Of a DNA stretch of 64,000 nucleotides, positions 14,232 to 62,120 are shown in pieces (position 1 is the stretch's first letter; each line of letters starts with the position of its first letter). The stretch covers positions 292,268-356,267 of the forward strand of contig JAAXWF010000001.1 of the NCBI GenBank assembly GCA_013335095.1, given 5' to 3'. This DNA comes from a candidate division WWE3 bacterium. GTDB lineage: Bacteria > Patescibacteriota > 4484-211 > GCA-002791395. The position numbers and the translations under genes were made by a program. A model generated the notes under the pieces. The model was not told where the DNA came from. It searched no databases and worked only from the letters and a program-made list of their open reading frames with translations.

Positions 14232-14309
14232 TTTTAAAGAAAGATAGGGGCTGGATCTCCGAAATTAATCGAAGAACCAGCCCGTGGCCGTTACAAACCT
14301 AGTGGTAGG

Positions 14310-14534
14310 TCAGATCTTGTTCTTCCCGCCGAAGACGGCGAGCATGAGCCCGATCAGAATCATGACGACGCAGACACCGATGCTGCAGATGGCAGCCGAG
14401 ACCTGGTGGTTGCTCACGAAGAGCATCACCAAAGCCGGGAAGCCCGTGTACGGATCATTCTTGAGACCCGCATACGTGCTGACCCCGAGCCCGAACCCAA
14501 CGACCGTCATAACGATACCGATGATCTGTGCCAT
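14310..14534 (-). CDS. Small two-helix membrane protein (GC-rich ORF)
   Basis: AGGAGG RBS 8 nt upstream of ATG (complement of 14534); 74 aa MAQIIGIVMTVVGFGLGV...MILIGLMLAVFGG. About 60 % GC versus the AT-rich flanks. ORF track extends to 14597. Confidence 0.45.
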   Translation of the reverse strand: MAQIIGIVMTVVGFGLGVSTYAGLKNDPYTGFPALVMLFVSNHQVSAAICSIGVCVVMILIGLMLAVFGGKNKI

Positions 14535-14769
14535 GACCTTGAACCTCCTAAATAAGATTGAAACGTGCCAGTGCCTCCGGCAGGGGATAAACCGCACCGT
14601 AGGCTTAATTTAAGTATACCGCTACCATACCCTATAGCAAGTTGCCGATAGTGCGAAATTTGTATTCCTATAGTTATTGCGGTAATTGTGCGGGAAATAT
14701 CATTACCTTGTTCATGCATAACCTTGATCAAATACACAATCAATATGGTTATTATGTTGCGGTTAGGAG

Positions 14770-14979
14770 GTGATAAACATGGATGAAAAAACTGTAAACC
14801 CGATCCAAATTCAGAAGTTTCTTGCCGGTGTCGATTATCCGGCAACAAAGGATGAATTAGTTGACTCTGCGGTAGAGCAAGGAGCTGATGACTCTGTTAT
14901 CGAGTCGCTCCAAAGCCTTCCGGATCAAGAATACCAAAAACCCACGGACGTTAGTGAAGCGCTAGGTAAAAAATCTTAA
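14770..14979 (+). CDS. DUF2795-like small protein
   Basis: KFLAGVDYPATKDELVDSAVEQGADDSVIESLQSLPDQEYQKPTDVSEA matches the DUF2795 pattern; a GGAGGTG RBS precedes it. Confidence 0.5.
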   Translation: MINMDEKTVNPIQIQKFLAGVDYPATKDELVDSAVEQGADDSVIESLQSLPDQEYQKPTDVSEALGKKS

Positions 14980-17576: not shown

Positions 17577-17597
17577 CTATTTTCACTATATAAAGTA

Positions 17598-17645: not shown

Positions 17646-18221
17646 TTAGCGCGAAGGTCGAAGGACCTCGACCATGATCTGCTCTTTTAGGGCGGTTATC
17701 CCACCCTGCGAGAGCTTCTCGGTGATGAGGTCATGTCCGAGACCTGACCGTGCCGCCGCTGACCTCGCCCTCATCATATCGCCATATTGGCGGATGAGGT
17801 CTTCTACCGGCTCGTAGCCGGTGAAGCACTGGCCGAGCGTCATTGCGAGCAGGTTGGCTGGGATGCCGACCCGACGAGCCTGTATACGAAGGCTTTCCCG
17901 ATACTCACGTTCGGTAAGGTAACCTTCGTCCTCGTCTGGTTTCGGACGATGCCCGTTGAGCCGGTTGGTGCCGGCGAACCAGGCCGCTAGTTGTGCAATC
18001 TCTGGCTCGGTGGCTGCCCGTTTCGGGTCAGTTTTTCGAGTCAAAGCACACAGCTGAGCGGCGAGCTCGATGAACTCCCGGTCAACGATTATCGTGACCG
18101 GCTTGGGCTGGGCGATCGGCCGAGCCGGTCCCGACAACCCTTGACGCTTGAGCAGTTCGAGCGTTTTGGTTTTTCCGCCTCTAGCACCGTTATGTTGGTG
18201 CTTCCGTTGGGTGGTGGTCAA
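17646..18221 (-). CDS. Hypothetical protein (GC-rich island gene A)
   Basis: About 65 % GC. AAGGAGG RBS 5 nt upstream of a TTG start at 18221 (the ORF track extends to 18287). A consensus sigma70 promoter TTGACA-N18-TATAAT lies on the minus strand at 18258-18287. The product is Ala/Arg-rich with no recognised domain. Confidence 0.5.
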   Translation of the reverse strand: MTTTQRKHQHNGARGGKTKTLELLKRQGLSGPARPIAQPKPVTIIVDREFIELAAQLCALTRKTDPKRAATEPEIAQLAAWFAGTNRLNGHRPKPDEDEGYLTEREYRESLRIQARRVGIPANLLAMTLGQCFTGYEPVEDLIRQYGDMMRARSAAARSGLGHDLITEKLSQGGITALKEQIMVEVLRPSR

Positions 18222-18393: not shown

Positions 18394-19059
18394 CTAGGCC
18401 GCGGCCAGCTCGTGCTCGTGGATCACGGGCATCGGGCAGGTGCGCACCGGCTCCGGGGCCTTCTTGGCGGCGATGGCCGCCTCGAGGGCCGAGAAGTCGA
18501 CCTCACACTCCTCCTTGAGGATGCGGGTGACCTCGTTGGTGTCGATGCCAGCATCGGCGGCCTGCTTGCGCAGCTTGGCCAGGAGAGTGTGGCGGTGGTT
18601 GTCCGCCTTCTTCTTGGCCTCGGCCTTTTCGACCTCGAGCTCGGCGCGGCGCTCGATGAGCGCGCGCTTGGCCAGGCGGAACTCGTCGTCCCAGCCTCGG
18701 GCAATGATCTGCCCGAAGTTGGCCTTGCCCATCCCGAGTTCCTCGGCCTGCTTAAGCAGCGACCGCTTGATCTCGATGAGCTTGGTGTGGCGCAGCTTGG
18801 CCTGGTAGCGCTGCTCATAGAGCTTTGCCACCTCGGCGAGGGCTTCGGCGTTCTGCGCCTGGGCGACCTCGTCGACGCGGTACTCGATGCCGCGGTCGTG
18901 GCTCCAGTTGAGTAGCGCCAGCTTAGCCTTGAGCAGCATCAACTCCTCGAACTCCATCTCGCTGCCGTTCTTGCTCGTGAGCCCAGCGCGGCGGGCGCGG
19001 GGGCCGATGTCGGCGCGGAGACGGATGAGCTGGCTCTGCTGGCTGTTGTCGGTAGTCAT
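18394..19059 (-). CDS. Hypothetical coiled-coil protein (GC-rich island gene B)
   Basis: 221 aa at about 68 % GC; GAGGAG RBS 8 nt upstream of ATG. Charged/Ala-rich heptad segments (KRALIERRAELEVEKAEAKKKAD). Confidence 0.5.
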   Translation of the reverse strand: MTTDNSQQSQLIRLRADIGPRARRAGLTSKNGSEMEFEELMLLKAKLALLNWSHDRGIEYRVDEVAQAQNAEALAEVAKLYEQRYQAKLRHTKLIEIKRSLLKQAEELGMGKANFGQIIARGWDDEFRLAKRALIERRAELEVEKAEAKKKADNHRHTLLAKLRKQAADAGIDTNEVTRILKEECEVDFSALEAAIAAKKAPEPVRTCPMPVIHEHELAAA

Positions 19060-19228
19060 GGGAGATTCTCCTCATGCATGTGGGGCATCTGCCCCATATC
19101 TTGACCACTAGGTCTCCATAAGACTGGGCGAGCCCTTTTTAGGGGGCGGCCCATCATTCCGACGGGTTGAGGGCGTGAGCCCTCTCCGAACCCCCGAAGG
19201 GGTCCCAAGTTACCCCGCCAGGCGGGTT

Positions 19229-19282
19229 ACTATGGGTGAACCAACTTGTCGATCTGTATCAACCGGTTAATTCACCCATAGT
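19229..19282. repeat. 12-bp perfect inverted repeat ACTATGGGTGAA...TTCACCCATAGT with 30-nt spacer, upstream of island gene B
   Basis: Read directly from the sequence. A second copy of the same arm sequence with a different spacer lies at 20366-20431 upstream of gene C. Confidence 0.6.
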
Positions 19283-19407
19283 TGTTCGCATTTACTTTGA
19301 AAAGTACGGTGTAATAACGTGTGTGTTATTACGGCAAACGGTTCTTATATTATAGCGAAATAGGGGATAAAAGTCAATTGCTATGGGGTAGTTGTGCGTA
19401 GCGTATA

Positions 19408-19504: not shown

Positions 19505-20179
19505 CTACGCCACCTTCTTGCCCTTCTTGCCACCGCCCTGCTTGTGCAGGGGCTGCTCGTTCGAGGGCCCCTTGGGGTTGGGGTTGCCGACGTTGGTGCG
19601 GCCACCCGGGGCGCGGTGCTGGGCGCTGGTGGCCTGCTTGGCCTCGATCTGGTCGAGCCAGTCGGTGAACAGCGCGTAGTTGCGCTGCGCGACGGCCTCG
19701 GCGAGGCGGGTCTCGCGGGTGCGGGTGTCGATGCCCATCTTCTTGGCGCGGAGGAGCAGGAAGCCGCGGTAGGTGCGGTCCTGCTGCATCTCGCGGATGC
19801 GCTCGTCGCGCTCCGTGGCCTCGGCCTCGAAGGTGCTCTTGGCGACCGCCTGCTGGGCGGCCTTAGCCTCGAGCTGGACAGCCTGCTCGCGCTTGGCGAT
19901 CCGGGCCTTGTAGCCCTTCATGCCGTTGGCGCGCTGGCGGAGCTTCTTGGCGTCCTCGGGGCAGATGCCCACGAGGTCGAAGAAGCTCACGTCGTTCAGG
20001 CCGACCGACGTGGTGAGCTCGAACAGCTCGAACGCCGCGTCGAGCGCGGCCTGGTCGATGCTGTGGAGCCTCATGACGATCTTCGCCCGGTCGGGGTTGC
20101 CGACGTTGGGGACGATCCCGAGCTTGCTGGCGCGGCTGACGTTGCGGGCGCGGAGCTCGAGGGTGCTGTTCGTCGTCAT
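19505..20179 (-). CDS. Hypothetical protein (GC-rich island gene C), distant paralog of gene B
   Basis: Start taken at MTTNSTLELRARN (the ORF track begins 16 codons earlier). Its N-terminus shows limited similarity to gene B (TT.S..L.LRA....RA..G). About 66 % GC. Confidence 0.45.
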   Translation of the reverse strand: MTTNSTLELRARNVSRASKLGIVPNVGNPDRAKIVMRLHSIDQAALDAAFELFELTTSVGLNDVSFFDLVGICPEDAKKLRQRANGMKGYKARIAKREQAVQLEAKAAQQAVAKSTFEAEATERDERIREMQQDRTYRGFLLLRAKKMGIDTRTRETRLAEAVAQRNYALFTDWLDQIEAKQATSAQHRAPGGRTNVGNPNPKGPSNEQPLHKQGGGKKGKKVA

Positions 20180-20365
20180 GGTAGGGCCGTTCCTTTCTGC
20201 GGGGGCGAGAAGCCCCCCTAGAGCCACCTGATGTGGTGGCCTCCTGGGCTAGGGACACAGCGACGCGCTGGTCCCTCCTGGGGTAAATGGTGGGTTTAAC
20301 CCCACCGGTGCGGCAAAGGTTGCCGCTCCACCCAACCGGGCGTGGGTTTCCCACGTGCCGGCCAT

Positions 20366-20431
20366 TTATGGGTGAATAGAGGCGCCTAGGAGGGCCCCAA
20401 TAAAGGGGTAAGCACCTCTGTTCACCCATAA
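20366..20431. repeat. Inverted repeat TTATGGGTGAA...TTCACCCATAA (about 44-nt spacer) upstream of island gene C
   Basis: Same arm sequence as the inverted repeat at 19229-19282; its inner part carries an additional imperfect palindrome (AGAGG.GC / GCACCTCT). Confidence 0.55.
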
Positions 20432-20597
20432 AAGCAGGAAAAAGGAACGAAAGGACTACCAATAAACGTAGTTCTTAAGTCGTGATGAAAATGTGCAAAG
20501 GGTATCTTATAAAAGTACCCCGTAAGCCCTGATAAGAGCTTACGTAATTATTATAGGGCATATTAGTGCCGAAAGTCAAGAGTTATGGGGTATAGAA

Positions 20598-20674
20598 TGG
20601 TACGCCCGGAGGGATTCGAACCCCCGATCTTCAGGACCGGAACCTGACGCTTTATCCAGCTAAGCTACGGGCGC
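20598..20674 (-). tRNA. tRNA-Arg (anticodon CCG), CCA encoded
   Basis: Manual fold of the reverse complement: acceptor GCGCCCG/CGGGCGT (with a G1-U72 pair), D-arm GCTT-AGCTGGATA-AAGC, anticodon stem TCAGG/CCTGA with loop TTCCGGT (anticodon CCG), T-arm GGGGG-TTCGAAT-CCCTC, discriminator A, CCA. Lies at the edge of the GC-rich island. Confidence 0.8.
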
Positions 20675-21753: not shown

Positions 21754-23148
21754 TTAGACTCTTAGCCCTAGCTCTGCGATCCAGTGCTCGGTGATTGCCC
21801 GGGTTCGTTCTACCGCCTGACCCAAGTAGTGTGTGGGGTCGTCAAAAAGCTGAAGCTCGGCCGGTTGGAACTGCCGCAAATACGGCTCGAGCGATGTGGT
21901 CTTTTGCGCAACCATGAGCAGTGTCTCGTTTGGAACAAGCGAACGACGCATCTCGTTGGTTACGAGTCTAACCGCCTCATGTGCATCTGGATGGCCGTAT
22001 TTGGCCAGCAGAATGTATAGCGGTTCGGCCATGGTTAAATCGGCCATGAACGAAACGTTGGCGCTCATTTGGCGTCGGTTTACCGCCAACTTTCGCATCG
22101 CCCGGTTCAGTCGAGTAATCATATTCGCCAGATATGCGACGATCTCGACCATTGTTCGGCCCGACGCCGATCCGGTTAAATCCCGCTGATGCTCGCTGAT
22201 CTGGTCAAGCATCACCGTGACCATTCTTCCTACAAGTACCTTCCATTGGCTCTCGATCTGCTCGAACGTGATCGGGTTCTTTTTGTGCGGCATGGTCGAT
22301 GATCCGACGTCCGCTCGACCCTGAACTTCTCCGACCTCATTGATTTCGGTGCGTTGCAGATGCCTCATATCGCGGGCAATATTGGCCAGGATTCCTCCGG
22401 TAAATGCCAACTCATTCATCAACCGCATCATCGGCTCGGGGGGAGCGATCTGGGTTGAATGAATGTCGCTCGAAAGACCAAGAGCCGACATTACCACCTG
22501 CTCATGGGCGAATCCATCGTCCACAACGAGCTGCATCGCGTTGTACGAACCAACCGCTCCGGAAAACTTACCGACCAATTGTCCGGTAAGCGTCGTGAGC
22601 ATGTTGATCGAATTGCCGAGTCGGTTGATGTATCCACATACGGTGAACCCGAATGTGACCGGTACGGCATGCTGACCATGGGTTCGGCCGATCTGGATGG
22701 TGAGCGCCTCGTTTTTAGCGATAGCGACGAGCGTCTCCAGCAGATCAATAAGCCGAGGGATAATCACATCATCCATCACTTCGGTCATGCGCAGCGCATT
22801 GGCCGTATCGATAATGTCGTATGACGTTGCCCCGAGATGGACGTACTGCCGCATATCTGGGGGGAGTAGCGACGTGAATACATTCACCAGTGCCCGGATG
22901 TCGTGATGGATTCGATCCTCTTCGGCATACACCGCTTCGGTCGTAACCTTTTGGCTTGCCTCAAGTGCCGCCTGGCATACCTCATCGGTGCAGACCCCGG
23001 CATCGCATAATGCGCTTAAGTGAGCAAGTTCGACACGTAGCAGATATCCCGTGAATGCTTCTGCACTAAGTCTCTTTGCGACCTCGCTATCATAGTAGCG
23101 ATAATCGAGCGGCGATATGGCATCAAATCTTCCCGATCTCTGAGTCAT
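21754..23148 (-). CDS. purB: Adenylosuccinate lyase
   Basis: N-terminal ISPLDYRYYD motif and fumarate-lyase signature GSSTMPHKKNPITFE; 464 aa. Confidence 0.75.
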   Translation of the reverse strand: MTQRSGRFDAISPLDYRYYDSEVAKRLSAEAFTGYLLRVELAHLSALCDAGVCTDEVCQAALEASQKVTTEAVYAEEDRIHHDIRALVNVFTSLLPPDMRQYVHLGATSYDIIDTANALRMTEVMDDVIIPRLIDLLETLVAIAKNEALTIQIGRTHGQHAVPVTFGFTVCGYINRLGNSINMLTTLTGQLVGKFSGAVGSYNAMQLVVDDGFAHEQVVMSALGLSSDIHSTQIAPPEPMMRLMNELAFTGGILANIARDMRHLQRTEINEVGEVQGRADVGSSTMPHKKNPITFEQIESQWKVLVGRMVTVMLDQISEHQRDLTGSASGRTMVEIVAYLANMITRLNRAMRKLAVNRRQMSANVSFMADLTMAEPLYILLAKYGHPDAHEAVRLVTNEMRRSLVPNETLLMVAQKTTSLEPYLRQFQPAELQLFDDPTHYLGQAVERTRAITEHWIAELGLRV

Positions 23149-25161: not shown

Positions 25162-25551
25162 ATGTCTCCGTTAGTTCGGACCGGCAGTTTCGCTCTGGTC
25201 GTGGAGCCTGGTGATTCAGGCGTTGTATTCCGTGTGTACGAGTTTGTAACAGCATCTGGAGATTCTCTGGATTCAACGGTGCCGCCGGTTACTCATGTTA
25301 TAGCCATGTGTGATCATGCCGAGGCGCGGGCTTTTGCCCGGGGTTGTACCGTCGACGAGTCTAGGCCTATCGTGGTGGGGGATATCGTAATCTCCCTAGA
25401 AGAGCCCGTCGATATGATGGGTTCGGGTAAATGGGGATTTGCCCATGTCGTCGTCAAAAAAGGGGACCGGGTGTTTCCATTTAATTATCAGGAAGCATAC
25501 AGGTTACAGGCAATGCGCTCGCAGGTTTTGGCGATCTGTGGTCGTGGGTAA
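25162..25551 (+). CDS. Hypothetical protein (GC-rich ORF)
   Basis: GGAGGTG RBS 6 nt upstream of ATG at 25162 (the ORF track starts at 25105). About 56 % GC, in contrast to the neighbouring genes. Confidence 0.45.
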   Translation: MSPLVRTGSFALVVEPGDSGVVFRVYEFVTASGDSLDSTVPPVTHVIAMCDHAEARAFARGCTVDESRPIVVGDIVISLEEPVDMMGSGKWGFAHVVVKKGDRVFPFNYQEAYRLQAMRSQVLAICGRG

Positions 25552-26868: not shown

Positions 26869-26874
26869 AGGTAT

Positions 26875-27453: not shown

Positions 27454-27603
27454 AACATTTGTTATTTATGGCGATAGGATAGGGGATGTAGGGCGATTTG
27501 ATCTCGTTTATAAAAACTGTGCGGGAAATATGCGGGAATTAAGTAAGAAATGACCGGAAACTTTATAAAGCTTCCGGTCTTAACTATTGTCAACCTCAAC
27601 ATC

Positions 27604-48476: not shown

Positions 48477-48519
48477 AAAGCCACTTCATGTCCGTGGAAT
48501 TAACTAAAGGAGGTAGCCA

Positions 48520-49302: not shown

Positions 49303-49364
49303 GTTATTTCGAAAACGGAAAGGCAGGGGAAATTCCTCTGCCTTATTTTTTATTAACCCATAGT

Positions 49365-49393
49365 TTGACTTGTTCATTACTTTTTCTTATACT
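49365..49393 (+). promoter_or_regulatory. Sigma70-type promoter TTGACT-N17-TATACT for family B member 2
   Basis: CCCATAGTTTGACT...TATACTAATGCCAC; the spacing was counted by hand. Confidence 0.55.
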
Positions 49394-49435
49394 AATGCCA
49401 CATTTCGTATCGGAGACTATATAAGGAGGTAGCCA

Positions 49436-50497
49436 ATGGCTGCTGAGTTGGATACGGGAAATTTGTCCGATAAAACCTGGCGCGAGATCGCAGGGTTGTG
49501 TCCGTTGTCTGTTCGACTGATGCAAGGTCCCCTCGATGATTCCGTTTCGATCATACATCCAAACGGGACCGAAGGGGAGTTGACCGTCGTAATCCATGAT
49601 AACGGCTGGATTTTTCGCCATTCTGCCCTGCATAATGGCGAGGTGCAGATACCAGCGGCAGAGGGTGATGCGACACCGGCGGCATCGAGGATATCTCTTC
49701 GGATTTATGAAAATCCGGTGGTGGTGTGCCCAGTGTGTAGGCATCGTAACGACCCGACTTATCGATATTGTGATAACTGTGGGGCTGACCTAAGGTTTGG
49801 TGATGAGCGACGAGGGGCACCACGCGCTAAACCGTGGGTTGATAAACAGCCCTATCTTGCCGAACCGTTCCAGCCTACATTTGTCTCTCAATGTCCGGCA
49901 TGTGGGGCCTCGACTTTCGGGTATGAACAGTTCTGTGATAGTTGTGGGGCTCATCTTCGTCTTGGGAAGGCCACTATTAACCCACAGGGCGATCAGGCAC
50001 TCCCGCTTATTGCTTCCGCACCAGCTTCTTTTCAGTTGGAGCTAAACCCAAGTGTGGTGTTGCATACCACAACTTACAGGGAGCTGAAGCGGCGTTTTGG
50101 TGAGCACCGTGGAGTGTATATCACCTGGCAGGTGAGTTCTGGGGGCGCCCGGTATGGAGGTAATTACCCGTCGATAGTTTTCGCGGTTGACCCTGATGAG
50201 ATGCAGCGCATCGTAGCTCTGTCGGGTTACGGTAGCCGATGTCGGGTTTTGCCATACTCTTCAATGAACGACGCCTTAATTGCGCGTTTGCTCTCGGAAG
50301 AGGTGGTACAAAACCTCCCGATTCCACCCGAAGTTTCAAACATTCGGGCGGGGTTTGACGTCATGAGCGGACTTGCTTTGCTGGTGCAAGATAATGAAGC
50401 TCAGGTGATTGCTGTCGTTGTGGGAACCCATGCACTGCCATCTGAACTTCGTCGGCTGGGGTTGATCTCTGACGAAGAGGGTCCAGCCTCTGCCTAA
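49436..50497 (+). CDS. GC-rich paralog family B, member 2 (two zinc-ribbon modules; hypothetical)
   Basis: Double zinc ribbon CPVCRHRNDPTYRYCDNCGADL and CPACGASTFGYEQFCDSCGAHL. The C-terminal block RCRVLPYSSMNDALIARLL...ELRRLGLISDEEG is shared with member 3. Terminator at 50515-50540. Confidence 0.55.
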   Translation: MAAELDTGNLSDKTWREIAGLCPLSVRLMQGPLDDSVSIIHPNGTEGELTVVIHDNGWIFRHSALHNGEVQIPAAEGDATPAASRISLRIYENPVVVCPVCRHRNDPTYRYCDNCGADLRFGDERRGAPRAKPWVDKQPYLAEPFQPTFVSQCPACGASTFGYEQFCDSCGAHLRLGKATINPQGDQALPLIASAPASFQLELNPSVVLHTTTYRELKRRFGEHRGVYITWQVSSGGARYGGNYPSIVFAVDPDEMQRIVALSGYGSRCRVLPYSSMNDALIARLLSEEVVQNLPIPPEVSNIRAGFDVMSGLALLVQDNEAQVIAVVVGTHALPSELRRLGLISDEEGPASA

Positions 50498-50558
50498 TTC
50501 ATGTGTGCGATGTTGCCGGGGAGAAATCCTCGGCTTTTTTATATCTATACCCCATAGT

Positions 50559-50587
50559 TTGACTTGTCCTTTGTTTTTTCTTATACT
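50559..50587 (+). promoter_or_regulatory. Sigma70-type promoter TTGACT-N17-TATACT for family B member 3
   Basis: CCCCATAGTTTGACT...TATACTAATGCCAC. Confidence 0.55.
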
Positions 50588-50629
50588 AATGCCACTTCGT
50601 ATATCCTGGATTATCTAAGGAGGTAGCCC

Positions 50630-51616
50630 GTGGCTATCAGAGGTCGCTATCTTGGTCATTCCCGCTTGTTCGATCTTGCGGCGTTAACTCCGCTCGAATG
50701 CGAGTTACGCTATGCACTGCCGTCAGACCCGGAAGCCTTGCTTCCATCAGACGCCGACAGTCCTGATCCGTACATTCCGGGAACGTTGACCCTCGATTTT
50801 GAGGGTGAGGGACTGGACATGTTGGTGTTACGCCATCCTGGACTTAAAGGTGGCGAACTGCGTGTTCCATTTGGTGATCGCGAGAATCCGCTGACCCATT
50901 ACGGGGTTCAAGTGTTTGCTTTGATCGAAGGCACTTTCCGCAGCACCTGCCCGATGTGCCATGCTCCCAGTGTGGTCCCTGAACAGCGCTTTTGTGAGGC
51001 GTGCGGTGCGAGCCTCGTGGTCTCATTTGGACGACGACGGCAAACCGCAGTGAGTAGCATCATGCCGTGGGGGACGTCCGACATCGACTATGAAGTGGGT
51101 GCAGGGCGAGTTCTGGGACCGAACATTACTGTTGCCGCTGTTCCCCTCAAGGTTAAAGCATCCCATGGGGATGCGTTACCGCCTGAACTCATCAAATTTG
51201 AGGCTCACCTGGTGTATCGGGCGCTGAAAAAGCGAGTCGGTCACCACCTGGCGATGGGTGTGGTATGGCGAACCGAAAATGGTAGCGATGATGAGGAACT
51301 GTGTTTTCGTCCGTTGCTTTTCGCCATGGATGTGGGCCTGGCAGCGGACCTTGTATCACAAGGTTCTCATGTCGTTCGTCGATATCGGGTGCTACCGTAT
51401 TCCGATATCAATGAGGCGCTCGTTGCTTTGCTGGTTGATGATTCTCGCCAACAGCACCAGCTTGCCAGTGTCGATGGGAGACCAGCCGTGCTGGAAGTGT
51501 TTGAGTCAGTGATTTCGTTGAATTCACAACTGGAATATCCGGTTGTTTCGTTGATTATTTCAGCAAACGCTCACCCAGACGAGCTCGCTCGACTTGGGCT
51601 TTTGTTTGCTGACTAA
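50630..51616 (+). CDS. GC-rich paralog family B, member 3 (one zinc ribbon; hypothetical)
   Basis: GTG start in the same AGGAGGTAGCC context. Motifs MAIRGRYLG, RHPGLKGGELRV, CPMCHAPSVVPEQRFCEACGASL, RYRVLPYSDINEALVALLV...ELARLGLLFAD. Terminator at 51638-51664. Confidence 0.5.
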   Translation: MAIRGRYLGHSRLFDLAALTPLECELRYALPSDPEALLPSDADSPDPYIPGTLTLDFEGEGLDMLVLRHPGLKGGELRVPFGDRENPLTHYGVQVFALIEGTFRSTCPMCHAPSVVPEQRFCEACGASLVVSFGRRRQTAVSSIMPWGTSDIDYEVGAGRVLGPNITVAAVPLKVKASHGDALPPELIKFEAHLVYRALKKRVGHHLAMGVVWRTENGSDDEELCFRPLLFAMDVGLAADLVSQGSHVVRRYRVLPYSDINEALVALLVDDSRQQHQLASVDGRPAVLEVFESVISLNSQLEYPVVSLIISANAHPDELARLGLLFAD

Positions 51617-51676
51617 TCAGTTGTATCGGTAAACCAGGCCGGGGAGAAATCCTCGGCTTTTTATTAATCCTATAGT

Positions 51677-51705
51677 TTGACTTTATCCCGGATTTTCTTT
51701 ATACT
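51677..51705 (+). promoter_or_regulatory. Sigma70-type promoter TTGACT-N17-TATACT for family B member 4
   Basis: CCTATAGTTTGACT...TATACTAAAGCCAC. Confidence 0.55.
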
Positions 51706-51755
51706 AAAGCCACGTCATAAGTCTGGAGCGCTTCGGCGCGTTACGGAGGTAACCG

Positions 51756-52277
51756 ATGGTTATCACTAGTAGGTCGGATTTAAACCGACTGCCAATCGGG
51801 GAGATCGGACGGATGTGTCCTATGTATGTGGAACTCGCACAAATAGGACCAGAGGACTATGCCCCTGGCGTAGATAGTTCGGGGCATCCCTGTCAGAAGG
51901 CCACCTACAACTATGTTAAGGGGTGGCTAACGGCAGAGGAGATCCCGCACTTCTGGGTGTTTCGGCATCCCGGGTTGAAGAACGGAAAGCTTCGGGTCTC
52001 TGCATTCAATTCGGATGTTAAGCCGGGATTCTACAACGTTGCCCTGTATCGCTGTGACGCCCCGGCTGTGGTGGCGTCAACTCCGCCGGCTGAGTGCCCC
52101 AACTGCGGGGCGCCTATTCCGCCGGATCCTGCCGTTCGCTTCTGCGACGTCTGCGGGACATCGCTTGAGCCAATGCCTGAGTCGGCGACGCCGAATGGAC
52201 GATTTCAGATCGGGGTGAATGCCAAGATCACCTGCACCCCATCAGGCATATCAATCGTCTTCAACGTCGACGAGTAA
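51756..52277 (+). CDS. GC-rich paralog family B, member 4 (short form, one zinc ribbon; hypothetical)
   Basis: Motifs RHPGLKNGKLRV and CPNCGAPIPPDPAVRFCDVCGTSL; 173 aa, lacking the C-terminal block of members 2 and 3. Confidence 0.5.
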   Translation: MVITSRSDLNRLPIGEIGRMCPMYVELAQIGPEDYAPGVDSSGHPCQKATYNYVKGWLTAEEIPHFWVFRHPGLKNGKLRVSAFNSDVKPGFYNVALYRCDAPAVVASTPPAECPNCGAPIPPDPAVRFCDVCGTSLEPMPESATPNGRFQIGVNAKITCTPSGISIVFNVDE

Positions 52278-52414: not shown

Positions 52415-53185
52415 ATGGAGGCCCAAGGATTTAGCCTGGTCCCATCCTTAGATGGTTCTCAGTCGATGCCGGAGGTATGGTATCGATTTATGGATGGGCA
52501 ACTCGAGCTCCGTTTTACCGGACTTGAGCCGTTTGCTCTGCCGATGCGACTTGTGCTTGGCGGTGGATTTGGTGGCTACCTTTTTACCACTGGACTGCAT
52601 AATCTCATCGACCTGTACTACCTTTGCCACTGGCTTGCAGCCATACAAGGTACTCCGGGCGAGATGATCGCGGCATTCAGTTATGAGTACGACCCTGATA
52701 ACGTCATGGTCCAACGAGTTGCGGCATTGTTTAAACAGTACCGGAGCCAGCTCAAACTGTTGCGTAACCAGATCGATCAGCGCTATGAGCGAATACTCGG
52801 AGCGACTAATCCCGCGACCGATCCGGGCTCGGGGGCGATTGGGATCATCGAAATTGATGGTGAATCATATTTCGAGGTTAATGCCACGCGACTTGAAGGA
52901 TCTGATGCCTTCTCGGCAAGCATCCTGCTACCCGTTGCGGCAATGCCACTGCTCTTGAGTTTAAAAGAGCAGGAAGATCAGGGGCCCTTTGGCTTCTATC
53001 TTCAAACGGTAACGGAACTGATCGGTGATTCGGTGGATATGCTCATCTGGCTATTCCACACGAATATGTTCAATCGTCCTGTATTGGAACTCTTGGAGGT
53101 TCCCACTCCCACCCGCATCTTCCTCGACCTACAGTACCAACTTGTCCAGCAAGTTATGGAGGTGATTAGGTCTTCAAGTCAGTAA
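52415..53185 (+). CDS. Hypothetical protein (GC-rich)
   Basis: 256 aa with a GGAGG RBS, same strand and composition as family B but no shared motifs. Confidence 0.45.
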   Translation: MEAQGFSLVPSLDGSQSMPEVWYRFMDGQLELRFTGLEPFALPMRLVLGGGFGGYLFTTGLHNLIDLYYLCHWLAAIQGTPGEMIAAFSYEYDPDNVMVQRVAALFKQYRSQLKLLRNQIDQRYERILGATNPATDPGSGAIGIIEIDGESYFEVNATRLEGSDAFSASILLPVAAMPLLLSLKEQEDQGPFGFYLQTVTELIGDSVDMLIWLFHTNMFNRPVLELLEVPTPTRIFLDLQYQLVQQVMEVIRSSSQ

Positions 53186-53654: not shown

Positions 53655-54671
53655 ATGGCCGCAGGTTCAGAAGTTCGCCAGCTTGCAGTTAAGGCAGCTG
53701 CGATCATTCAGGCCGAACCGGATACCCACATTCAGCACGATCGAATTGCCGAGATCGTCGGTCAGGTTATTGCTGATGCTGGGGTCGTGAATGCAAAGCG
53801 AAGGGGGATCGCTGCTCGGATTTTAACCGAGCTCACGGAGTATTGCGGTTTCTGGCGTTATGCGTCAGTGTGGGTCACCTTACCCAGACGTTCATCTGAT
53901 TGGATGAACCATGGGAAGGGGGACTTTGTCGTTTTTTGGACCTTACATTTCTTTGGTCCACAGAAGCTAGACGCACTCAATGCTCTGTATTTAGTGTGTT
54001 CTGCGTCACCTAAATCCCTACCGGATGGTTTTAAAGACGCTCTTAATTCACTTATGACCAGTAAGTGGATTGGGGTGGATGAAGGCGATGATCTGATCGC
54101 ACTGACTGAATGCGGTGAAATGCTGGTTAAGCTTTCGCTTGCAACTGAGGTCGATCCACAGCTCATCACTCAAGTTGTCCGACTGCGCCACTCACTCGGT
54201 TTTCGATATGGACGCGATACCCAAGATTGGTTTCGCAACTTGGGTGTCGGCGATTGGAAGAGCAAAGGTCCGGGTAAGCCCTCGCAGCTCACGTGGGCAG
54301 ATCATGCCGTGCAGGATATCGTCGTTGAAGAAGCTGGGGGACAGGCCAGGTACTCCGGTACCTCTTTGCTGCATCGATTGCCGCTAGACTCTGCTGCACA
54401 GTTGGTGCTGGGTAAGATCGTCGCGCTGCTCGTTCAATACGGCAGCTGGGCGATCCGCAAGGAGGAGCTCCTCCGTGAGATGTATGGGGGCGGTTGGGGT
54501 ATGTCAGTGTGGACGCCCTCTGAATTCGTCGAAGCAGTAATTGGCTACCTCATCAAGACGGGCCTGATCGTCTGTTACTCTCATAAAGTAACGGGTCAGG
54601 AGTGGTTTTGTTTAGCCCATTGTCAGCTACACGAGACGCTCATCGATCAACTCGATTTGGTTCGTAGCTAA
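53655..54671 (+). CDS. Hypothetical protein (GC-rich), flanked by the two SemiSWEET-like genes
   Basis: 338 aa with an AAGGAGG RBS; Trp/Gly-rich with no recognised domain. Confidence 0.45.
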   Translation: MAAGSEVRQLAVKAAAIIQAEPDTHIQHDRIAEIVGQVIADAGVVNAKRRGIAARILTELTEYCGFWRYASVWVTLPRRSSDWMNHGKGDFVVFWTLHFFGPQKLDALNALYLVCSASPKSLPDGFKDALNSLMTSKWIGVDEGDDLIALTECGEMLVKLSLATEVDPQLITQVVRLRHSLGFRYGRDTQDWFRNLGVGDWKSKGPGKPSQLTWADHAVQDIVVEEAGGQARYSGTSLLHRLPLDSAAQLVLGKIVALLVQYGSWAIRKEELLREMYGGGWGMSVWTPSEFVEAVIGYLIKTGLIVCYSHKVTGQEWFCLAHCQLHETLIDQLDLVRS

Positions 54672-55101: not shown

Positions 55102-55755
55102 CTATTCTTCGGGCAAGGGTGGTTCTTTACCTTCCCATTTTTGCCATATCGGATTCGTCTGTTGATCTCGCGGCATGTTGTGGGTTTCAAATTCTGCCCA
55201 CCATGCAGCTGGATCTGGTAGGTGTGTGAGGACGGTTGCTGACCGATCACCATACTCCACAACACGCGAAAAGACCTTTGGCGTCTCGAAATGATTTCGA
55301 CGAGCAAGAGCTCGGTCTCGATCTTTGTTTGTTGGCCAGGTAACTAAGTACCAGGTTAACTGGCGTAGAGTCAAACCATTGACTATTGTTTGAGACAGGC
55401 CTTGTTTTAGCCATCTCATCGTGATGTTGTAAATATCGATTTGACCCATGATCCTACTCGGTATTCGTGGACCAAATAGGCTAATGGCAGCTGTTGCCCC
55501 ATGTGCTGGCTTGGTGATGCGTAAAGATCCTAGTAGTCCACCGACTTCATAGTCGATGATACTATGTTTGCGATATCCGGCAACGGTTTCGGCTAATATC
55601 CGTGCGGTTGCATCATCCAGATCGACCCGTAAATAAGGATCAATCGCCATTCCCGATACGACAACGTATCCCCCCAAAAGGGTGATGGGTCCAACATCTG
55701 GTATGCACACCAGTAATCCTCGGTTGCCGACCTCGATTAGTTGCGATAGACTCAT
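55102..55755 (-). CDS. Hypothetical protein (GC-rich)
   Basis: 217 aa with an AGGAGG RBS upstream; terminator hairpin GCCGGAGAA-agaat-ATTCTCCGGC at about 55828-55855. Confidence 0.45.
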   Translation of the reverse strand: MSLSQLIEVGNRGLLVCIPDVGPITLLGGYVVVSGMAIDPYLRVDLDDATARILAETVAGYRKHSIIDYEVGGLLGSLRITKPAHGATAAISLFGPRIPSRIMGQIDIYNITMRWLKQGLSQTIVNGLTLRQLTWYLVTWPTNKDRDRALARRNHFETPKVFSRVVEYGDRSATVLTHLPDPAAWWAEFETHNMPRDQQTNPIWQKWEGKEPPLPEE

Positions 55756-55883
55756 CGCGCCTCCTTAGGCTTTGTAGTGCCTATTCCTAGTATTCTAATA
55801 CTTGATAATTATAAAGCACATAATCAAAAAGCCGGAGAAAGAATATTCTCCGGCTCGGTGTAAAAATGTTGTAGTGTATTGTT

Positions 55884-56240
55884 TTACGTTAGTTTCGATT
55901 CCTCGTCTAGCCAGATCGAGCTAATCGGTGCATTAACTTGCATCAGTCGAGGGTAGAGCCATCCCCACACTAACGCAATTTGCTGACCTTGGATAAAGAC
56001 ATACCCACTCACTGGCTCCTTTGTATCAGATGAGATTACCTGATAACGAACGCCATCGCTCTCATCTTTGATCACCTGCGAGACTCGTTGAGTCCCTCGG
56101 CAATAATTGATTGTGATTTGATGGATCGTTGGTTCTAGCGCGCTACGTAGGGTTACTTCTACGTTTAAGTCCGGCACACTTCCTTCTTGGAACACTCGTT
56201 CCAGTACCAAACGTGATGGATCCGCAAGGGCGGTTCGCAT
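55884..56240 (-). CDS. Hypothetical protein
   Basis: 118 aa with a GGAGG RBS upstream. Confidence 0.4.
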   Translation of the reverse strand: MRTALADPSRLVLERVFQEGSVPDLNVEVTLRSALEPTIHQITINYCRGTQRVSQVIKDESDGVRYQVISSDTKEPVSGYVFIQGQQIALVWGWLYPRLMQVNAPISSIWLDEESKLT

Positions 56241-56458
56241 GGCAAACCTCCATGGAGTTTGACCGGCGGGAATTGCCCTCTGATTATACCAAAAATGGGT
56301 TTTTATTGTTTTTTCTTTAGATTAGTGTTTGCACTATATGCAATAGGTGTGTTACAGTAGTACATTGACTCTTGCGTTGTGGATCGCCAGAGTGTGTGGA
56401 TAAGCGGGGGCGTTGTAGCGCCCCCGCAGGCTTTTCCCCATAAGAGCAACGAGGCTCT

Positions 56459-56647
56459 CTAGTCTGCAGCCCCATGGCTGCTAGTGAACGCGGTGGGGGA
56501 GGCCGCGCTTCCATTGCCGTTAGGCGGGGCGACATCATCGATATCGCCGGTGAACGAACCCAATGGGGTGAACCCTCTCTGATGGGCAAAAAGCCCTAGG
56601 CCTGCTAGGACTACCCCACCTCCAAAAGCTGCTATTAGAAACAGCAT
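56459..56647 (-). CDS. Small GC-rich membrane peptide
   Basis: 62 aa (MLFLIAAFGGGVVLAGLGLFAH...) with a GGAGGG RBS 5 nt upstream; a perfect 9-bp hairpin GCGGGGGCG-ttgtag-CGCCCCCGC lies downstream at 56402-56425. Confidence 0.35.
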   Translation of the reverse strand: MLFLIAAFGGGVVLAGLGLFAHQRGFTPLGSFTGDIDDVAPPNGNGSAASPTAFTSSHGAAD

Positions 56648-56764
56648 ATCGACCCTCCTTCCGACGTGGATGGTTATAGGCTCTATTATACGCTAGCTGT
56701 GCTAGTTAACTCTAAATATATCAAATTGAAAATAAAATGTACTCTATTTGGATTAAGGATTTCT

Positions 56765-58576: not shown

Positions 58577-58762
58577 AGGCAGGTTTTATTCAATACATAC
58601 TCACAATCATAACCGAAAAGGTTGATTATGATGTTCATACATACTATTTGTATTACGGATTTCAATTTTATGCAATTTTTTCTTTAAAAAAATGATTAAC
58701 TAGAGTTGATGTATAAATAAAAAATGCCAGGTACTCACTTTGGGTGAGCACCTGGCATGGTC

Positions 58763-60439
58763 TTAAGGCGGCGGCATGTTTACTCCCTCTGGGGGAGGTT
58801 GTTCAAGCCGCCTTTCCTCCACGAACTGTTGGAGCGCGTCCCGATTGATTTTACAGACCTCAACGGTGTCTTTAAACCCGTCGAAGACCTGTACCGTCGC
58901 ACAGTAGCGCGCTACATTCCGTCGACCGCCAATCGCCTGTGGAATATCGGCGGTCGTTGAGCGATACAGCCCAAGGTATTCTACTTTCAGAGCAAGTAGC
59001 TCCTCGGGTGAGCTCTGATCGATCCGGGCATATGGCTGGGGAATGAGTACCCCAATATATGGTTCCGTACCGATTATCGCGTCTTGCGGTAGCATTGCCC
59101 CCATGAAGTCGGCAGACCGCTCTACCGCATTTCCTCGTGCAGTCAGAACACGGGTATAGTAGGTCCCCGCATTCATAACTACCACCACTGCTAGTATGAC
59201 CATAGTCGTCTTCGGACGCTTTTTGTAGAGCGTTGTCAGACCAATGGCAAGCAGTGTCAAAAGCGGCAGTTGCCAGAGCATGAAGTAGTGCGGACTTTTA
59301 AGGGCCGCACCGGCTCCAAATACTAAGGCGCCTACCGACCACGCGACGATCACCCAGGTAACCCGCTGCATCTGCAGACTCTCGACGATGCGCTGGACTG
59401 CTTTTGCAGATCTAAAGGTTACTCCAAGGCCTACTCCTACAAGCATCAGATACTGATTGCTAAAAAGAATTCCGATGCTCAGGAGTCCTGCGCCTACTCC
59501 CCAAGTCAGGGCCGTATGCAGGTTTGGTCGTGCCACGATCCGGCGTAGGATTCGTGACGAGTAACCTGCCGCGGCAATTGCTGCTCCTCCAAGGAGTCCC
59601 ACAATCGTCGTCGGGAAGATCCAGTATCGTTCGGTCACCACCTCTATGATGTGACCGATACCGTAATTAAGTCCTCGCGACGGGCGAAGACCAAATGTTC
59701 GGTACACTTGGACCATAGTCGGCTCGAGCCATTCGCCATGCCACCGGACATACATCGCGGTGCCGTAGGCGATCGTAACGAGCGCTACCATAATTCCAAG
59801 GACGATATGTCCTTTCCAGTGACGTCTGTCAATCAACCAGTACGCCACTACTCCGAAGATCAGGTAGACCCCGATATGCTTATAGATAAACGGAAGTGCT
59901 ATTGCCACTCCCGCGATCATGTAGCGTATCAAGGACTCCTTCCCATCCACCGAAATTGCACGGTAATAGAGGATAACCGCGACCACAATTAAGACCATCT
60001 GGATATTCTCCAGATAGACCATACTGTTGGTCACGACCATCCAGCCATCCAGACCGAGCAGCATCAAACAAATGGTCCCTGCCGGTTTATCAACAACTCG
60101 TCGTAGAAAGATGCTCAGCATCGTGATGGCGAGAGTTGACGTTACTGCCGACAGAAGTCGTGCCTGGATTACCCCAAGTCCGAATACCTGCATCCACCCC
60201 CAGATTACGTAGAATCCGAAGAAGGGGTGGAAGTGGTATGCCCGTACTGCTTCATGCAGCTCTCCCCGAAGGGCTGGGTATCCAACTCGACTGATGAACC
60301 GAGCCGCCGTGTAATTGATAGGCTCGTCCACCTCCATACCAACCTGTTGAGCTGCGATGACTCTTAGGGCTAGTACGATCAGCACTAGGCCGATAAATGC
60401 AAATCGGCTTTCCAAAATCCGTTTACTCATCTTCCTCAC
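58763..60439 (-). CDS. GT-C-fold membrane glycosyltransferase (ArnT/PMT-like), GC-rich
   Basis: 558 aa with 12 or more transmembrane helices and a DE motif in the first extracytoplasmic loop (VGMEVDEP); about 58 % GC. Confidence 0.5.
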   Translation of the reverse strand: MRKMSKRILESRFAFIGLVLIVLALRVIAAQQVGMEVDEPINYTAARFISRVGYPALRGELHEAVRAYHFHPFFGFYVIWGWMQVFGLGVIQARLLSAVTSTLAITMLSIFLRRVVDKPAGTICLMLLGLDGWMVVTNSMVYLENIQMVLIVVAVILYYRAISVDGKESLIRYMIAGVAIALPFIYKHIGVYLIFGVVAYWLIDRRHWKGHIVLGIMVALVTIAYGTAMYVRWHGEWLEPTMVQVYRTFGLRPSRGLNYGIGHIIEVVTERYWIFPTTIVGLLGGAAIAAAGYSSRILRRIVARPNLHTALTWGVGAGLLSIGILFSNQYLMLVGVGLGVTFRSAKAVQRIVESLQMQRVTWVIVAWSVGALVFGAGAALKSPHYFMLWQLPLLTLLAIGLTTLYKKRPKTTMVILAVVVVMNAGTYYTRVLTARGNAVERSADFMGAMLPQDAIIGTEPYIGVLIPQPYARIDQSSPEELLALKVEYLGLYRSTTADIPQAIGGRRNVARYCATVQVFDGFKDTVEVCKINRDALQQFVEERRLEQPPPEGVNMPPP

Positions 60440-60440
60440 C

Positions 60441-62120
60441 TCACAGTTGAAACAACCGTAAGCCCCGCAGGAACTCGGCCAGCCACGGAGGTATCTTACC
60501 CCCTCGCGCAGCTGAGTACCAGTACCCGACGAGCCAGACGGTAATCTGGATGAAGGTGAGGATTGGAAACACCATTGCTTTGATGGTCCCGGCCTTTAGG
60601 GCGTTATACACCCCGAGTGTGCCGAATCCACCGAGCGCAAGTGCTCCAACCATCGCAAGACCAAACAGCCATCCAAAATATGCGATGGCGCTCACCGCGA
60701 AAACGACAGCCCCGAGGATTACTCCTGTGGAGACCACCGCCATCCGGTGCCGATTTTTCGCAAACCGGTTGTTCGGGCGAGCGATTAGGAACTGCCGAGC
60801 GGCCATACCTGTTACCAGATGCTTTGCCAGCCGAAGCTTAACCTCATGCATCCGGTGGTTGTACCACTCGTTGGTTGTCCTAATCGTGACCCCTGCGTTC
60901 ACGATCGTTGAGCTTAGCGCAAAGTCCTCCCACCCCGAAAATCCCTGAGTGGGGAAGTCACCTTCGATGGTGACAAATACCTCGCGCGTAAACGCCAAGC
61001 ATGCCGTTACCGGCAGACCAGTTCCTTTACCAAAGTTGGCTTTGGTTAGGATGGTCGCGTTAAACCTGACGTTCTCCGACAGTAGGGCTTCGTCCGACAT
61101 TAGGGCGAGCAGGCGTTTGTCGCCAGGCATACGAGTTGTTACGCCCGCAATAGCGACCTCGCCTTGCCCCCCAAGCTCGCTAGGAGCCATCAGTCGAACG
61201 ATCTTTTCGCACCAATCCTCCGGTACAAGGATCTTCGCATCAGTTAGGGCGAGGATGTCGCCTGTTGCTGCTGCGAGTCCCGCTTTACGCCGGGCATTGG
61301 TGTCTCGACCCACCAGATTTGATGGTCTGGTGAACGGCACAATCCGAACCTTCCCTGAAACAATGTAGTTGTTCAGAAGTGGGATGGTCGGGTCGGCCAG
61401 TTCGGTGACAATGATAATCTCGTGCACCGGGTAGGTCTGGTTTAGCAGCGCATCTACGCAAGCGTGTATGCGCGTCCTTTCAGTACCATCCGGGAACGTG
61501 ATCATCGCCGGCTCGTTTCGGGCCGGGATTATCACCGAGACTTTAATCCCAGGTGGCGCCTCTCCAGTGATATCGGGCTGGCGCGGGGCCGCCTCCTTGC
61601 GGAAGACAAACCGATCCATTCCCAGATATCGCAGAGAAGTGATTATCACCTGGACTGCGGCTACTGCAACCCACCACGGTTGTCCGAGGTTTAGGATCAG
61701 GTTGTATATCACCTGACCAAGCGGTACGGTGAAGGCCGGTATTAGGTGATACCGCCTCCAGTGTGCCCAAAATTGCTGACTGAATGTGCGGCTTAGCCAA
61801 TCCTTTAGGCGACTCCATCGCGGAGCCGTTTTGGGGAAGCGAGCCGGGACCCATTCGGTTCGGTCTTTCCAGGTCACCCACCGATTTATGGCGAAGTTGA
61901 TCTCGACACTTAGGATCGAGACTACTAAATTCGCCAACCGTGGATTAACCCGGATCCATTCGATCAATACGTAGAGAAGTGCTAATCCAAAGACGAGCAC
62001 CCCTACGCCCACTAGTCCAAATCCGGCGATACGCCGTCCGGCATTTTGGTCCGACAACGGAACCTCCTTTACTATTCGGATTCCTTGTCGAATGCGTCTA
62101 TGCACGCTCCTTTTTATCAA
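60441..62120 (-). CDS. Membrane GT2-family glycosyltransferase with N-terminal GtrA-like domain and C-terminal TM bundle, GC-rich
   Basis: GT2 motif VSVIIPARNEP and the DxD region (LALTDAK); a GtrA-like N-terminal membrane segment (...FAINRWVTWKDR); about 60 % GC; tightly linked to the upstream GT-C gene. Confidence 0.5.
   Translation of the reverse strand: MIKRSVHRRIRQGIRIVKEVPLSDQNAGRRIAGFGLVGVGVLVFGLALLYVLIEWIRVNPRLANLVVSILSVEINFAINRWVTWKDRTEWVPARFPKTAPRWSRLKDWLSRTFSQQFWAHWRRYHLIPAFTVPLGQVIYNLILNLGQPWWVAVAAVQVIITSLRYLGMDRFVFRKEAAPRQPDITGEAPPGIKVSVIIPARNEPAMITFPDGTERTRIHACVDALLNQTYPVHEIIIVTELADPTIPLLNNYIVSGKVRIVPFTRPSNLVGRDTNARRKAGLAAATGDILALTDAKILVPEDWCEKIVRLMAPSELGGQGEVAIAGVTTRMPGDKRLLALMSDEALLSENVRFNATILTKANFGKGTGLPVTACLAFTREVFVTIEGDFPTQGFSGWEDFALSSTIVNAGVTIRTTNEWYNHRMHEVKLRLAKHLVTGMAARQFLIARPNNRFAKNRHRMAVVSTGVILGAVVFAVSAIAYFGWLFGLAMVGALALGGFGTLGVYNALKAGTIKAMVFPILTFIQITVWLVGYWYSAARGGKIPPWLAEFLRGLRLFQL

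Follow-up and report, generated by a model that had tools for sequence, protein, structure and literature searches.

GC-rich gene islets in an AT-rich candidate division WWE3 genome and a possible role of mRNA structure in their composition

Atypical GC content is routinely taken as a sign of horizontal gene transfer (HGT). For genomic islands acquired in this way, Lawrence and Ochman are said to have proposed the amelioration model in 1997. Here we describe a set of GC-rich islets in a 64-kb stretch (hereafter the window) of the genome of a candidate division WWE3 bacterium, belonging to the Patescibacteria or candidate phyla radiation (CPR); in these islets atypical GC coincides with RNA structure encoded at synonymous sites and with a different style of translation initiation. 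All window-wide results given below refer to this single window. Like HGT islands, the islets have atypical composition and codon usage (GC content at third codon positions, GC3, of 0.46-0.98 versus 0.29-0.42 in the core genes), they contain accessory or hypothetical genes, two of the blocks are located by tRNA genes, and the purB gene and, judging by composition, the glycosyltransferase genes are compatible with a source of about 55% GC. Unlike HGT islands, they are single open reading frames (ORFs) or small arrays with codon-precise bounds, without direct repeats and with no integrase or mobility gene found inside the blocks; the two extreme genes lack donor homologs, and one block is syntenic in a distant relative, with its GC3 undiminished after saturation of synonymous sites.

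Several other described systems resemble the islets in part. Selection on synonymous sites for mRNA structure was reportedly revealed by Katz and Burge in 2003; where it has been described, it mostly amounts to a weak tendency across the genome. As in those cases, native coding sequences of the islets fold better than permutations that preserve both the protein and the dinucleotides, and in six of eight genes the sense strand gives the stronger signal; in contrast to them, the effect is restricted to one gene class, is large (mean z of about -3.9) and is coupled to a rise in GC3 of 15-60 points and to a separate initiation style. Synonymous-site selection for both secondary structure and stability of mRNA has also been described (Chamary and Hurst, 2005; PMC1242210). 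Unlike tracts of GC-biased gene conversion, the islets are not enriched in GC over non-coding DNA, except in the leaders of the extreme genes. Leaderless genes and genes led by a Shine-Dalgarno (SD) sequence are found within one genome in Actinobacteria and Deinococcus-Thermus. The window is similar in that the two styles coexist and a -10 box lies a few nucleotides before many starts, but here they match two base compositions almost perfectly. Finally, the islets include tandem families of three or four paralogs (21-37% identity), each gene with its own conserved promoter and terminator, as in tandem families of fast-evolving accessory or surface proteins; unlike such families, however, these arrays have no signal peptides, repeats, phase-variation or cassette-switching features and belong to no known family beyond the zinc ribbon.

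The GC content of the window is 45.2%, against a background of about 40-42%, most of the window lying at 38-43%. At least 13 blocks, containing about 24 genes, reach up to 50-72% GC in 200-nt windows. The gene average of GC goes up from 0.38-0.44 to 0.54-0.58 within about 25-50 nt of the start and returns to the lower level at the stop; the GC switches coincide with the ends of ORFs. The difference in GC3, calculated from codon-position GC of each ORF, is accompanied by nearly equal GC at second codon positions (GC2) in both sets. A previous sequence-only reading of the window had listed blocks of this kind, and they are present at essentially all of the positions it gave; the lipoprotein, the small membrane peptide and the glycosyltransferases that it had reported are present, and both of its paralog arrays are genuine. 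Its list was incomplete, lacking a GC-rich block at 27604-28254, and its block at 55.1-56.7 kb exists but is weak (GC3 of the called genes 0.42-0.46; block range to 0.48). The core gene labels were upheld, with support for dnaA, dnaN, hisS, lon, a recF-like gene, def, a class-V aminotransferase, mutL and rnhB; the statement that every core gene is AT-rich holds for the other labelled genes but not for purB. High GC is also not confined to ORF bodies as had been supposed, since the two most extreme genes have leaders of 280-370 nt with 58-64% GC. The GC-rich units and the elements associated with them are as follows.

14310-14534 (-): gene of a small membrane peptide with two transmembrane segments, 74 amino acids; GC3 0.84; AGGAGG site; own promoter-like site
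17646-18221 (-): GC-rich gene, 191 amino acids, without Pfam, PHROGs or NCBIfam match; GC3 0.65; AAGGAGGT site
18287-18258 (-): promoter of 17646-18221, 12/12 match to consensus
18394-19059 (-): extreme GC-rich gene, 221 amino acids, product predicted to be all-helical; GC3 0.92; one known relative
19060-19348 (-): structured GC-rich 5' leader of 18394-19059, beginning with hairpin CUAUGGGUGAA...UUCACCCAUAG
19377-19349 (-): promoter TTGACT-17-TATAAT of 18394-19059
19505-20179 (-): most extreme GC-rich gene, 224 amino acids; GC3 0.98; total orphan
20180-20549 (-): 370-nt GC-rich leader of 19505-20179, sharing the basal hairpin of the 19060-19348 leader
20579-20550 (-): promoter TTGACT-18-TATAAT of 19505-20179
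20598-20674 (-): tRNA-Arg(CCG), immediately upstream of the block at 17.6-20.5 kb
21754-23148 (-): purB, adenylosuccinate lyase (Lyase_1 + ASL_C); 54% GC, GC3 0.61; SD-led; strong terminator
25162-25551 (+): small GC-rich gene without Pfam match; GC3 0.49; GGAGGTGAG site
27604-28254 (-): GC-rich gene of a membrane-anchored product without Pfam match; GC3 0.52
28794-29351 (-): lipoprotein gene, lipobox LSAC; GC3 0.82; GC-rich leader
33177-33653 (+): GC-rich gene without Pfam match; GC3 0.55; AGGAGGAG site
35055-35465 (+): GC-rich gene without Pfam match; GC3 0.58; AAGGAGG site
36171-36443 (-): GC-rich gene, 90 amino acids, without Pfam match; GC3 0.60; AAGGAGG site; strong terminator
37298-40038 (+): three-paralog array (37298-38026, 38390-39118, 39253-40038); 21-33% amino-acid identity; GC3 0.53-0.66; one terminator per gene
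47177-47253 and 47623-47699 (+): tRNA-Ile(UAU) and tRNA-Ala(CGC), about 0.8 kb upstream of the four-paralog array
48440-52277 (+): four zinc-ribbon paralogs (48520-49302, 49436-50497, 50630-51616, 51756-52277); 25-37% amino-acid identity; GC3 0.50-0.64; each gene with a conserved promoter module CCYATAGTTTGAC-N18-TATACTAAWGCCAC, a AAGGAGGT site and a terminator
52415-53185 and 53655-54671 (+): two GC-rich genes without Pfam, PHROGs or NCBIfam match, separated by an AT-rich gap; GC3 0.54-0.55
55102-56650 (-): weak block with 55102-55755 (GC3 0.42) and 55884-56240 (GC3 0.46), both SD-led
56317-56650 (-): small GC-rich ORF region in the weak block, frame uncertain
58763-62057 (-): two-gene glycosylation unit, GT2/GtrA protein (60441-62057) and PMT_2-type glycosyltransferase (58763-60430); GC3 0.57-0.62

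It should be mentioned that the GC3-rich genes carry long antisense shadow ORFs, for example 19544-20221 (+) opposite 19505-20179 (-). The plus-strand ORF 14284-14613 is such a GC3-rich shadow, the real gene of the 14.3-14.6 kb block being 14310-14534 on the minus strand. At the 19505-20179 locus the Logan gene call is on the plus strand (225 amino acids) and the NCBI annotation on the minus strand; the minus strand is right, because the promoter, the SD sequence and the terminator are all found there.

The source of the window is a metagenome-assembled genome (MAG); HGA91_01670, a hypothetical protein encoded on a 536-kb contig of a candidate division WWE3 MAG, is identical to the product of 18394-19059. 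Assembly or binning might have joined fragments of a GC-rich organism to an AT-rich MAG, but we give practically no credence to this explanation. More than 25 GC switches fall at start or stop codons and come with working terminator, SD and promoter signals, identical junctions are present in the Logan assembly made independently from run SRR11449211, and a locus from a different sample (L082; Logan SRR21121619) shows the mosaic at the orthologous position. An assembly chimera was rejected on these grounds.

To the sequence-only reading, high GC could have been kept up by proteins rich in Ala, Gly, Arg and Pro. Islet proteins do have somewhat more Ala, Gly and Arg and less Lys and Asn, and GC at first codon positions (GC1) is 0.55-0.68 in the islets versus about 0.50 in the core genes. 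However, GC2 hardly differs between the two sets, and when the amino acids of each protein were combined with core codon usage, the expected GC3 was 0.35-0.41 while the observed values were 0.46-0.98 (z = 3-20). The GC3 difference proposed as a check on the mosaic thus persists under amino-acid control, and because the excess resides at synonymous sites, protein composition is refuted as its main cause; as an explanation of the islets it keeps very little probability.

We found that the synonymous sites of the islets are also arranged in a particular way. The minimum free energy (MFE) of each ORF was compared with that of its own synonymous-codon permutations, with protein and codon usage fixed. 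All 19 islet genes gave negative z values (mean -3.90), while the mean was -0.39 for 17 core genes and -1.03 for 14 genes from GC-rich CPR loci, which served as a control for GC itself (Mann-Whitney p = 1.5e-6 for islets versus core and 6.6e-4 for islets versus GC-rich CPR genes). The strongest values belong to the glycosyltransferases (-7.5 and -8.05); 17646-18221 gave -6.7/-5.1 and purB -3.45. The effect persists in permutations with an exactly preserved GC profile along the gene, and in those that leave protein, codon usage and the numbers of mono- and dinucleotides unchanged (mean -3.77 in islets, -0.25 in core genes, p = 3e-5). It recurs outside the window, in the L082 ortholog of 18394-19059 (z of -3.1 to -4.9) and in a GC-rich purB of Candidatus Pacebacteria described below (z = -3.26). 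No discrete long palindromes were found behind the folding excess, which is diffuse. In six of eight genes z is lower for the sense than for the antisense strand (mean -4.95 versus -3.27), though the antisense strand, too, is clearly negative; in the plus-strand arrays MFE ranges from -280 to -369 for the sense and from -224 to -315 for the antisense strand. In these arrays A at third positions is halved, G is doubled and T is kept, which makes the sense strand rich in G and U and thus favours pairing in the RNA over its complement.

Since the synonymous G and C choices appear to be arranged so as to raise base-pairing of the mRNA, we read the GC-richness of the islets as a property of the transcript, which would be held by selection for extensive RNA secondary structure; we are about evenly divided between confidence and doubt in this reading. 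On this account the genome holds two kinds of transcription units, the AT-rich core and mostly stand-alone GC-rich islets. Core units mostly have no SD sequence, about half of them with a leaderless-type layout, while islet units would mostly be monocistronic, leadered, SD-dependent and heavily structured, with more mRNA base-pairing than is needed. We infer that selection on RNA structure keeps GC high and that the structure has a purpose of its own: the likely pay-off would be long-lived or tightly controlled SD-dependent messages, and nuclease resistance is another candidate. We also count in favour of this reading that paralogs at 25-37% identity keep GC-rich bodies, while the modules with their promoters and terminators are conserved and AT-rich.

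GC in particular genes could likewise be raised by a local bias of mutation or repair without selection on RNA, such as GC-biased gene conversion at accessory loci prone to recombination or transcription-associated mutation in units that are strongly transcribed. The near-identical spacers of the tandem paralogs, including one identical 25-nt terminator, suggest ongoing conversion; the non-coding leaders of the extreme genes are GC-rich too, the islets carry the best promoter matches of their region, and the loss of A3 with T3 kept in the plus-strand arrays is one-sided. But within the arrays spacer GC is 35-47%, also where conversion seems to have homogenised the sequence, which is the opposite of what biased conversion predicts. 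A bias in composition also cannot yield a folding excess over permutations that preserve the GC profile and the dinucleotides, and it leaves the stronger effect on the sense strand unexplained. We therefore regard this explanation as quite improbable. Tuning of the islet genes to expression in a GC-rich host was considered as a further idea.

Initiation of translation was compared between the two groups of genes, after the start codons had been verified by eye and by means of independent gene calls. In 22 of 24 GC-rich genes versus five of 37 AT-rich genes the SD duplex has an energy of -7 kcal/mol or stronger (p of about 8e-10). One of the two GC-rich genes without SD has a mis-set start, with AAGGAGGT found 4 nt ahead of a TTG at 62057. 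Conversely, a leaderless-type layout, defined as a TANNNT box with its end 4-12 nt upstream of the start codon and no SD, was revealed in 19 of 37 AT-rich genes and in none of the 24 GC-rich genes, the frequency in shuffled upstream regions being 27%. Examples of such core starts are 662, 5496, 10125(-), 12924, 23218, 33941, 36085(-), 40149, 42111, 42737 and 46113(-). The split is visible even with unrefined starts and recurs in L082. This layout, seen in about half of the AT-rich genes that have an upstream region of their own, suggests that leaderless mRNAs may be the usual state for this genome. Leaders of 36-370 nt carrying a strong AGGAGG site precede all GC-rich genes or, in two-gene units, the first of the two. 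Most islet genes are preceded by a recognisable sigma70-type promoter, and the 17.6-20.5 kb block contains the three best promoter matches within 14-34 kb. A strong intrinsic terminator follows about 16 of 26 islet genes versus about four of 36 core genes. Ribosome-binding sites of the islets, previously described as host-like, are therefore nothing of the kind: a strong SD is the hallmark of the GC-rich genes and is rare in the core. As the islets do not share the mostly leaderless, SD-less initiation style of the core, the proposed regulatory domestication is not supported. We found no literature report linking leaderless versus SD-led initiation to base composition in CPR bacteria, and none of GC mosaics in WWE3.

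In seven islet promoters the sequence CCYATAG (CCCCATA[G/A] in the extreme block) is located 0-4 nt upstream of the -35 element TTGAC. Its positions are as follows.

48440, 49357, 50551, 51669 and 39186 (+): CCYATAG-type sites
19381 and 20582 (-): CCYATAG-type sites

Taken on its own, the motif shows no enrichment across the window (15 observed, 10.9 expected); it could be the site of a shared regulator. In the four-gene array TAAWGCCAC is conserved right after the -10 box.

For 18394-19059 a single relative was found among 5.8 billion clustered proteins, and for 19505-20179 an exhaustive HMMER search revealed no homolog among 1.84 billion representative proteins. The AlphaFold model of the former is all-helical and has no match in the PDB. 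Its relative (P0002) is encoded at L082 in the same arrangement as in the window, convergent with a Crp-like gene that is followed by a VKOR gene, and the leader, the terminator and the neighbouring promoter and spacer sequence are common to both loci. Identity between the two loci is 55% for the Crp-like proteins and 47-48% for the islet proteins; the relative is also seen in SRR21121627. Where a residue is identical, its codon is likewise the same with a frequency of 0.42 in the Crp-like gene (0.37 expected by chance) and 0.62 in the islet gene (0.57 expected); use so close to chance means that synonymous sites are saturated between the window genome and L082. Nevertheless, the L082 ortholog has a GC3 of 0.86 while that of its neighbours is 0.34. 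A contrast that outlasts synonymous saturation must be at its own equilibrium, whether it is actively maintained or renewed time after time at one site. Conservation of islets in relatives at syntenic positions, which the sequence-only reading had named as something that would refute it, was thus found for the one testable islet. Patchy presence was not seen: in the only relative found (n = 1) the position of the ortholog is unchanged, and the spacers are shared.

No further relatives were revealed by a metagenome scan with the Crp-like alignment. The anticodon arm of the tRNA-Arg, used as an anchor, led to three loci, none of them with synteny, and with Lon as an anchor in species-representative genomes, all of the matches listed had at most 50% identity and belonged to unrelated phyla. 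Six window proteins were found in the collection, all of them as singleton 90% clusters.

The leaders of the extreme genes fold far better than dinucleotide shuffles (z of about -7). Three copies are known, 19060-19348 (-), 20180-20549 (-) and L082:1-217 (+); the base of the hairpin stem (CUAUGGGUGAA...UUCACCCAUAG) is conserved, its apical part is variable, and several GC-rich helices follow. The two orthologous leaders share helices, in which nine of 47 pairs are compensatory. No Rfam family matched the leaders or small GC blocks. We consider these leaders a candidate new cis-regulatory RNA.

The most serious competitor of selection on RNA structure, though in our view an unlikely one, is repeated acquisition of the islets from GC-rich donors, after which local promoters, ribosome-binding sites and terminators were gained, the different GC3 levels reflecting different times of amelioration. 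This was the first explanation offered by the sequence-only reading, and purB is the one gene for which it has support. The 120 best homologs of purB are at most 54% identical, and every one with a taxon name belongs to Patescibacteria. Three of four homologs with usable (long-contig) context are located in uniformly GC-rich CPR loci of 54-61% GC. The fourth comes from an AT-rich Candidatus Pacebacteria genome (GCA_028716825.1, L092:3794-5460; 35.6% GC), where purB is a GC-rich outlier (GC3 0.55 versus 0.23-0.34 in its neighbours) with its own TTGACA/TATATT promoter, a leader of about 90 nt, an AGGAGG site and a terminator. It is 72% identical to the purB of a 61% GC CPR genome, so that one close pair is split between GC-rich and AT-rich hosts; the phenomenon may be wider in CPR. 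No GC contrast was seen at two further purB loci (L093 and L094), and the amino-acid composition of PurB was uninformative as a proxy. It is plausible that purB entered from GC-richer Patescibacteria, and the glycosyltransferases may have been imported from the same source, judging by composition alone.

Codon positions point the same way for part of the genes. Lawrence-Ochman regressions were used to convert GC at positions 1/2/3 into implied genome GC. The core set is self-consistent (41/39/40%), and purB with the glycosyltransferases (55/57/55) is consistent with a 55-57% GC source and looks un-ameliorated. The extreme genes (59/56/73) show the opposite of amelioration, their GC3 being above what positions 1 and 2 imply.

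Several observations weigh against selection on RNA structure and mostly in favour of import. The moderate genes (implied GC 58/61/53) have the look of partly ameliorated imports; the codon usage of the GC-rich genes falls into at least three classes, which fits several origins; and the nearest purB homologs are found, as described above, mostly in GC-rich genomes. Strongly folded genes occur in possible donors, three of the 14 GC-rich CPR control genes reaching z of -3.5 or lower, and SD use is about 50% in GC-rich CPR loci versus 14% in the core genes of the window. Two of the larger blocks are beside tRNA genes, and one relative with one syntenic islet gene leaves room for recurrent re-acquisition at a tRNA-Arg hotspot. 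Homolog searches in the large collections covered 18394-19059, 19505-20179 and purB. Some starts were refined by eye, and all the evidence on folding consists of computed MFE.

On the other side, import does not explain the orphan status of the most extreme gene, nor the persistence of 18394-19059 in synteny, with shared spacers and an intact GC3 contrast after synonymous saturation. The paralogs have diverged to about 30% identity inside conserved AT-rich spacers. Import alone also does not predict that 19 of 19 genes out-fold their synonymous permutations, or that they exceed GC-rich CPR genes in this respect, and the initiation style of the islets, unlike that of the host, does not support their domestication. 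Traces of mobility were sought throughout the window. No long direct repeats flank the blocks, no integrase or mobility gene is found within them, no repeat of 12 nt or longer from any tRNA occurs elsewhere in the window, and the 3' end of tRNA-Arg(CCG) is not repeated; only two of at least 13 blocks are near tRNA genes. Concatenated islet proteins gave no match to phages or plasmids, and the paralog profiles none to viral contigs. At a distance of 0.7 kb past the glycosyltransferase block there is an AT-rich gene (62848-63723) of an XerC/D-type tyrosine recombinase.

Taken gene by gene, repeated acquisition is thus supported for purB, with its homologs in 54-61% GC Patescibacteria, and contradicted by the extreme genes, one without homologs and the other with one syntenic relative. 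The resident compartment that had been offered as a second possibility comes closer as to residence, whereas the cause proposed for it, protein composition, fell. The origins of the genes are probably mixed, the extreme genes tested being old residents or orphans. A wider form of the RNA-structure reading can be put forward only tentatively, as a possibility we think rather unlikely: this bacterium and at least one distant relative would run two regimes, AT-rich leaderless housekeeping genes and long-maintained GC-rich, hyper-structured, SD-dependent monocistronic mRNAs, and base composition would be the sign of a compartment with its own control and its own translation (dormancy or host-contact messages, for instance), not of gene ancestry.

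If selection on mRNA structure acts in this way genome-wide, composition-based HGT calls in CPR genomes would be misleading. The islets would be a clear natural case of such selection driving GC at the level of genes, and leaderless versus leadered, structured messages would form an unrecognised regulatory layer in an uncultured lineage with reduced genomes. In addition, the features described flag about 20 putatively lineage-specific genes as a coherent and probably strongly expressed set.

Most of the islet genes have no Pfam, PHROGs, PADLOC or NCBIfam family. Those with an identity are the zinc ribbons of the four-gene array, the PMT_2-type and GT2/GtrA glycosyltransferases and purB, the latter being the only match in NCBIfam, PHROGs and PADLOC scans of the islets. 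Both tandem arrays consist of true paralogs (21-37% identity overall). The promoter-SD modules of the four-gene array are 66-82% identical in DNA, and one 25-nt terminator is identical between copies. The structure model of the three-paralog family has a predicted local distance difference test (pLDDT) value of 67 and matches only generic alpha/beta folds.

Two sortase-like paralogs, 46153-47055 (-) and 62196-62840 (-), share 47% identity over the C-terminal 146 amino acids. Both are AT-rich, and each is located at the edge of a GC-rich block region. Upstream of the four-gene array, an AT-rich stretch of 1.4 kb (47091-48519) has no convincing ORFs and holds the tRNA-Ile(UAU) and tRNA-Ala(CGC) genes; tRNA-Ile with the UAU anticodon is uncommon in bacteria. 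An 11-nt unit (TGCGGGAAWTA / TTCGGGAATCA) was revealed in short tandem copies at several sites, some of them intergenic.

6311-6342, 13379-13399, 14678-14698 and 27520-27540: copies of the 11-nt unit
6261-6283 and 6649-6671: related copies

Near 10 kb the GC skew changes its sign; the minus-strand genes dnaN and dnaA and the recF gene are next to this point, which is probably the replication origin. Between dnaA and hisS there is an ORF of 303 amino acids rich in Pro and Gln (11945-12856). Finally, an AT-rich operon at 662-5454 (+) includes a gene of a TraG/VirB4-type P-loop ATPase (3208-5454), and probably encodes a type IV secretion or conjugation-like apparatus.

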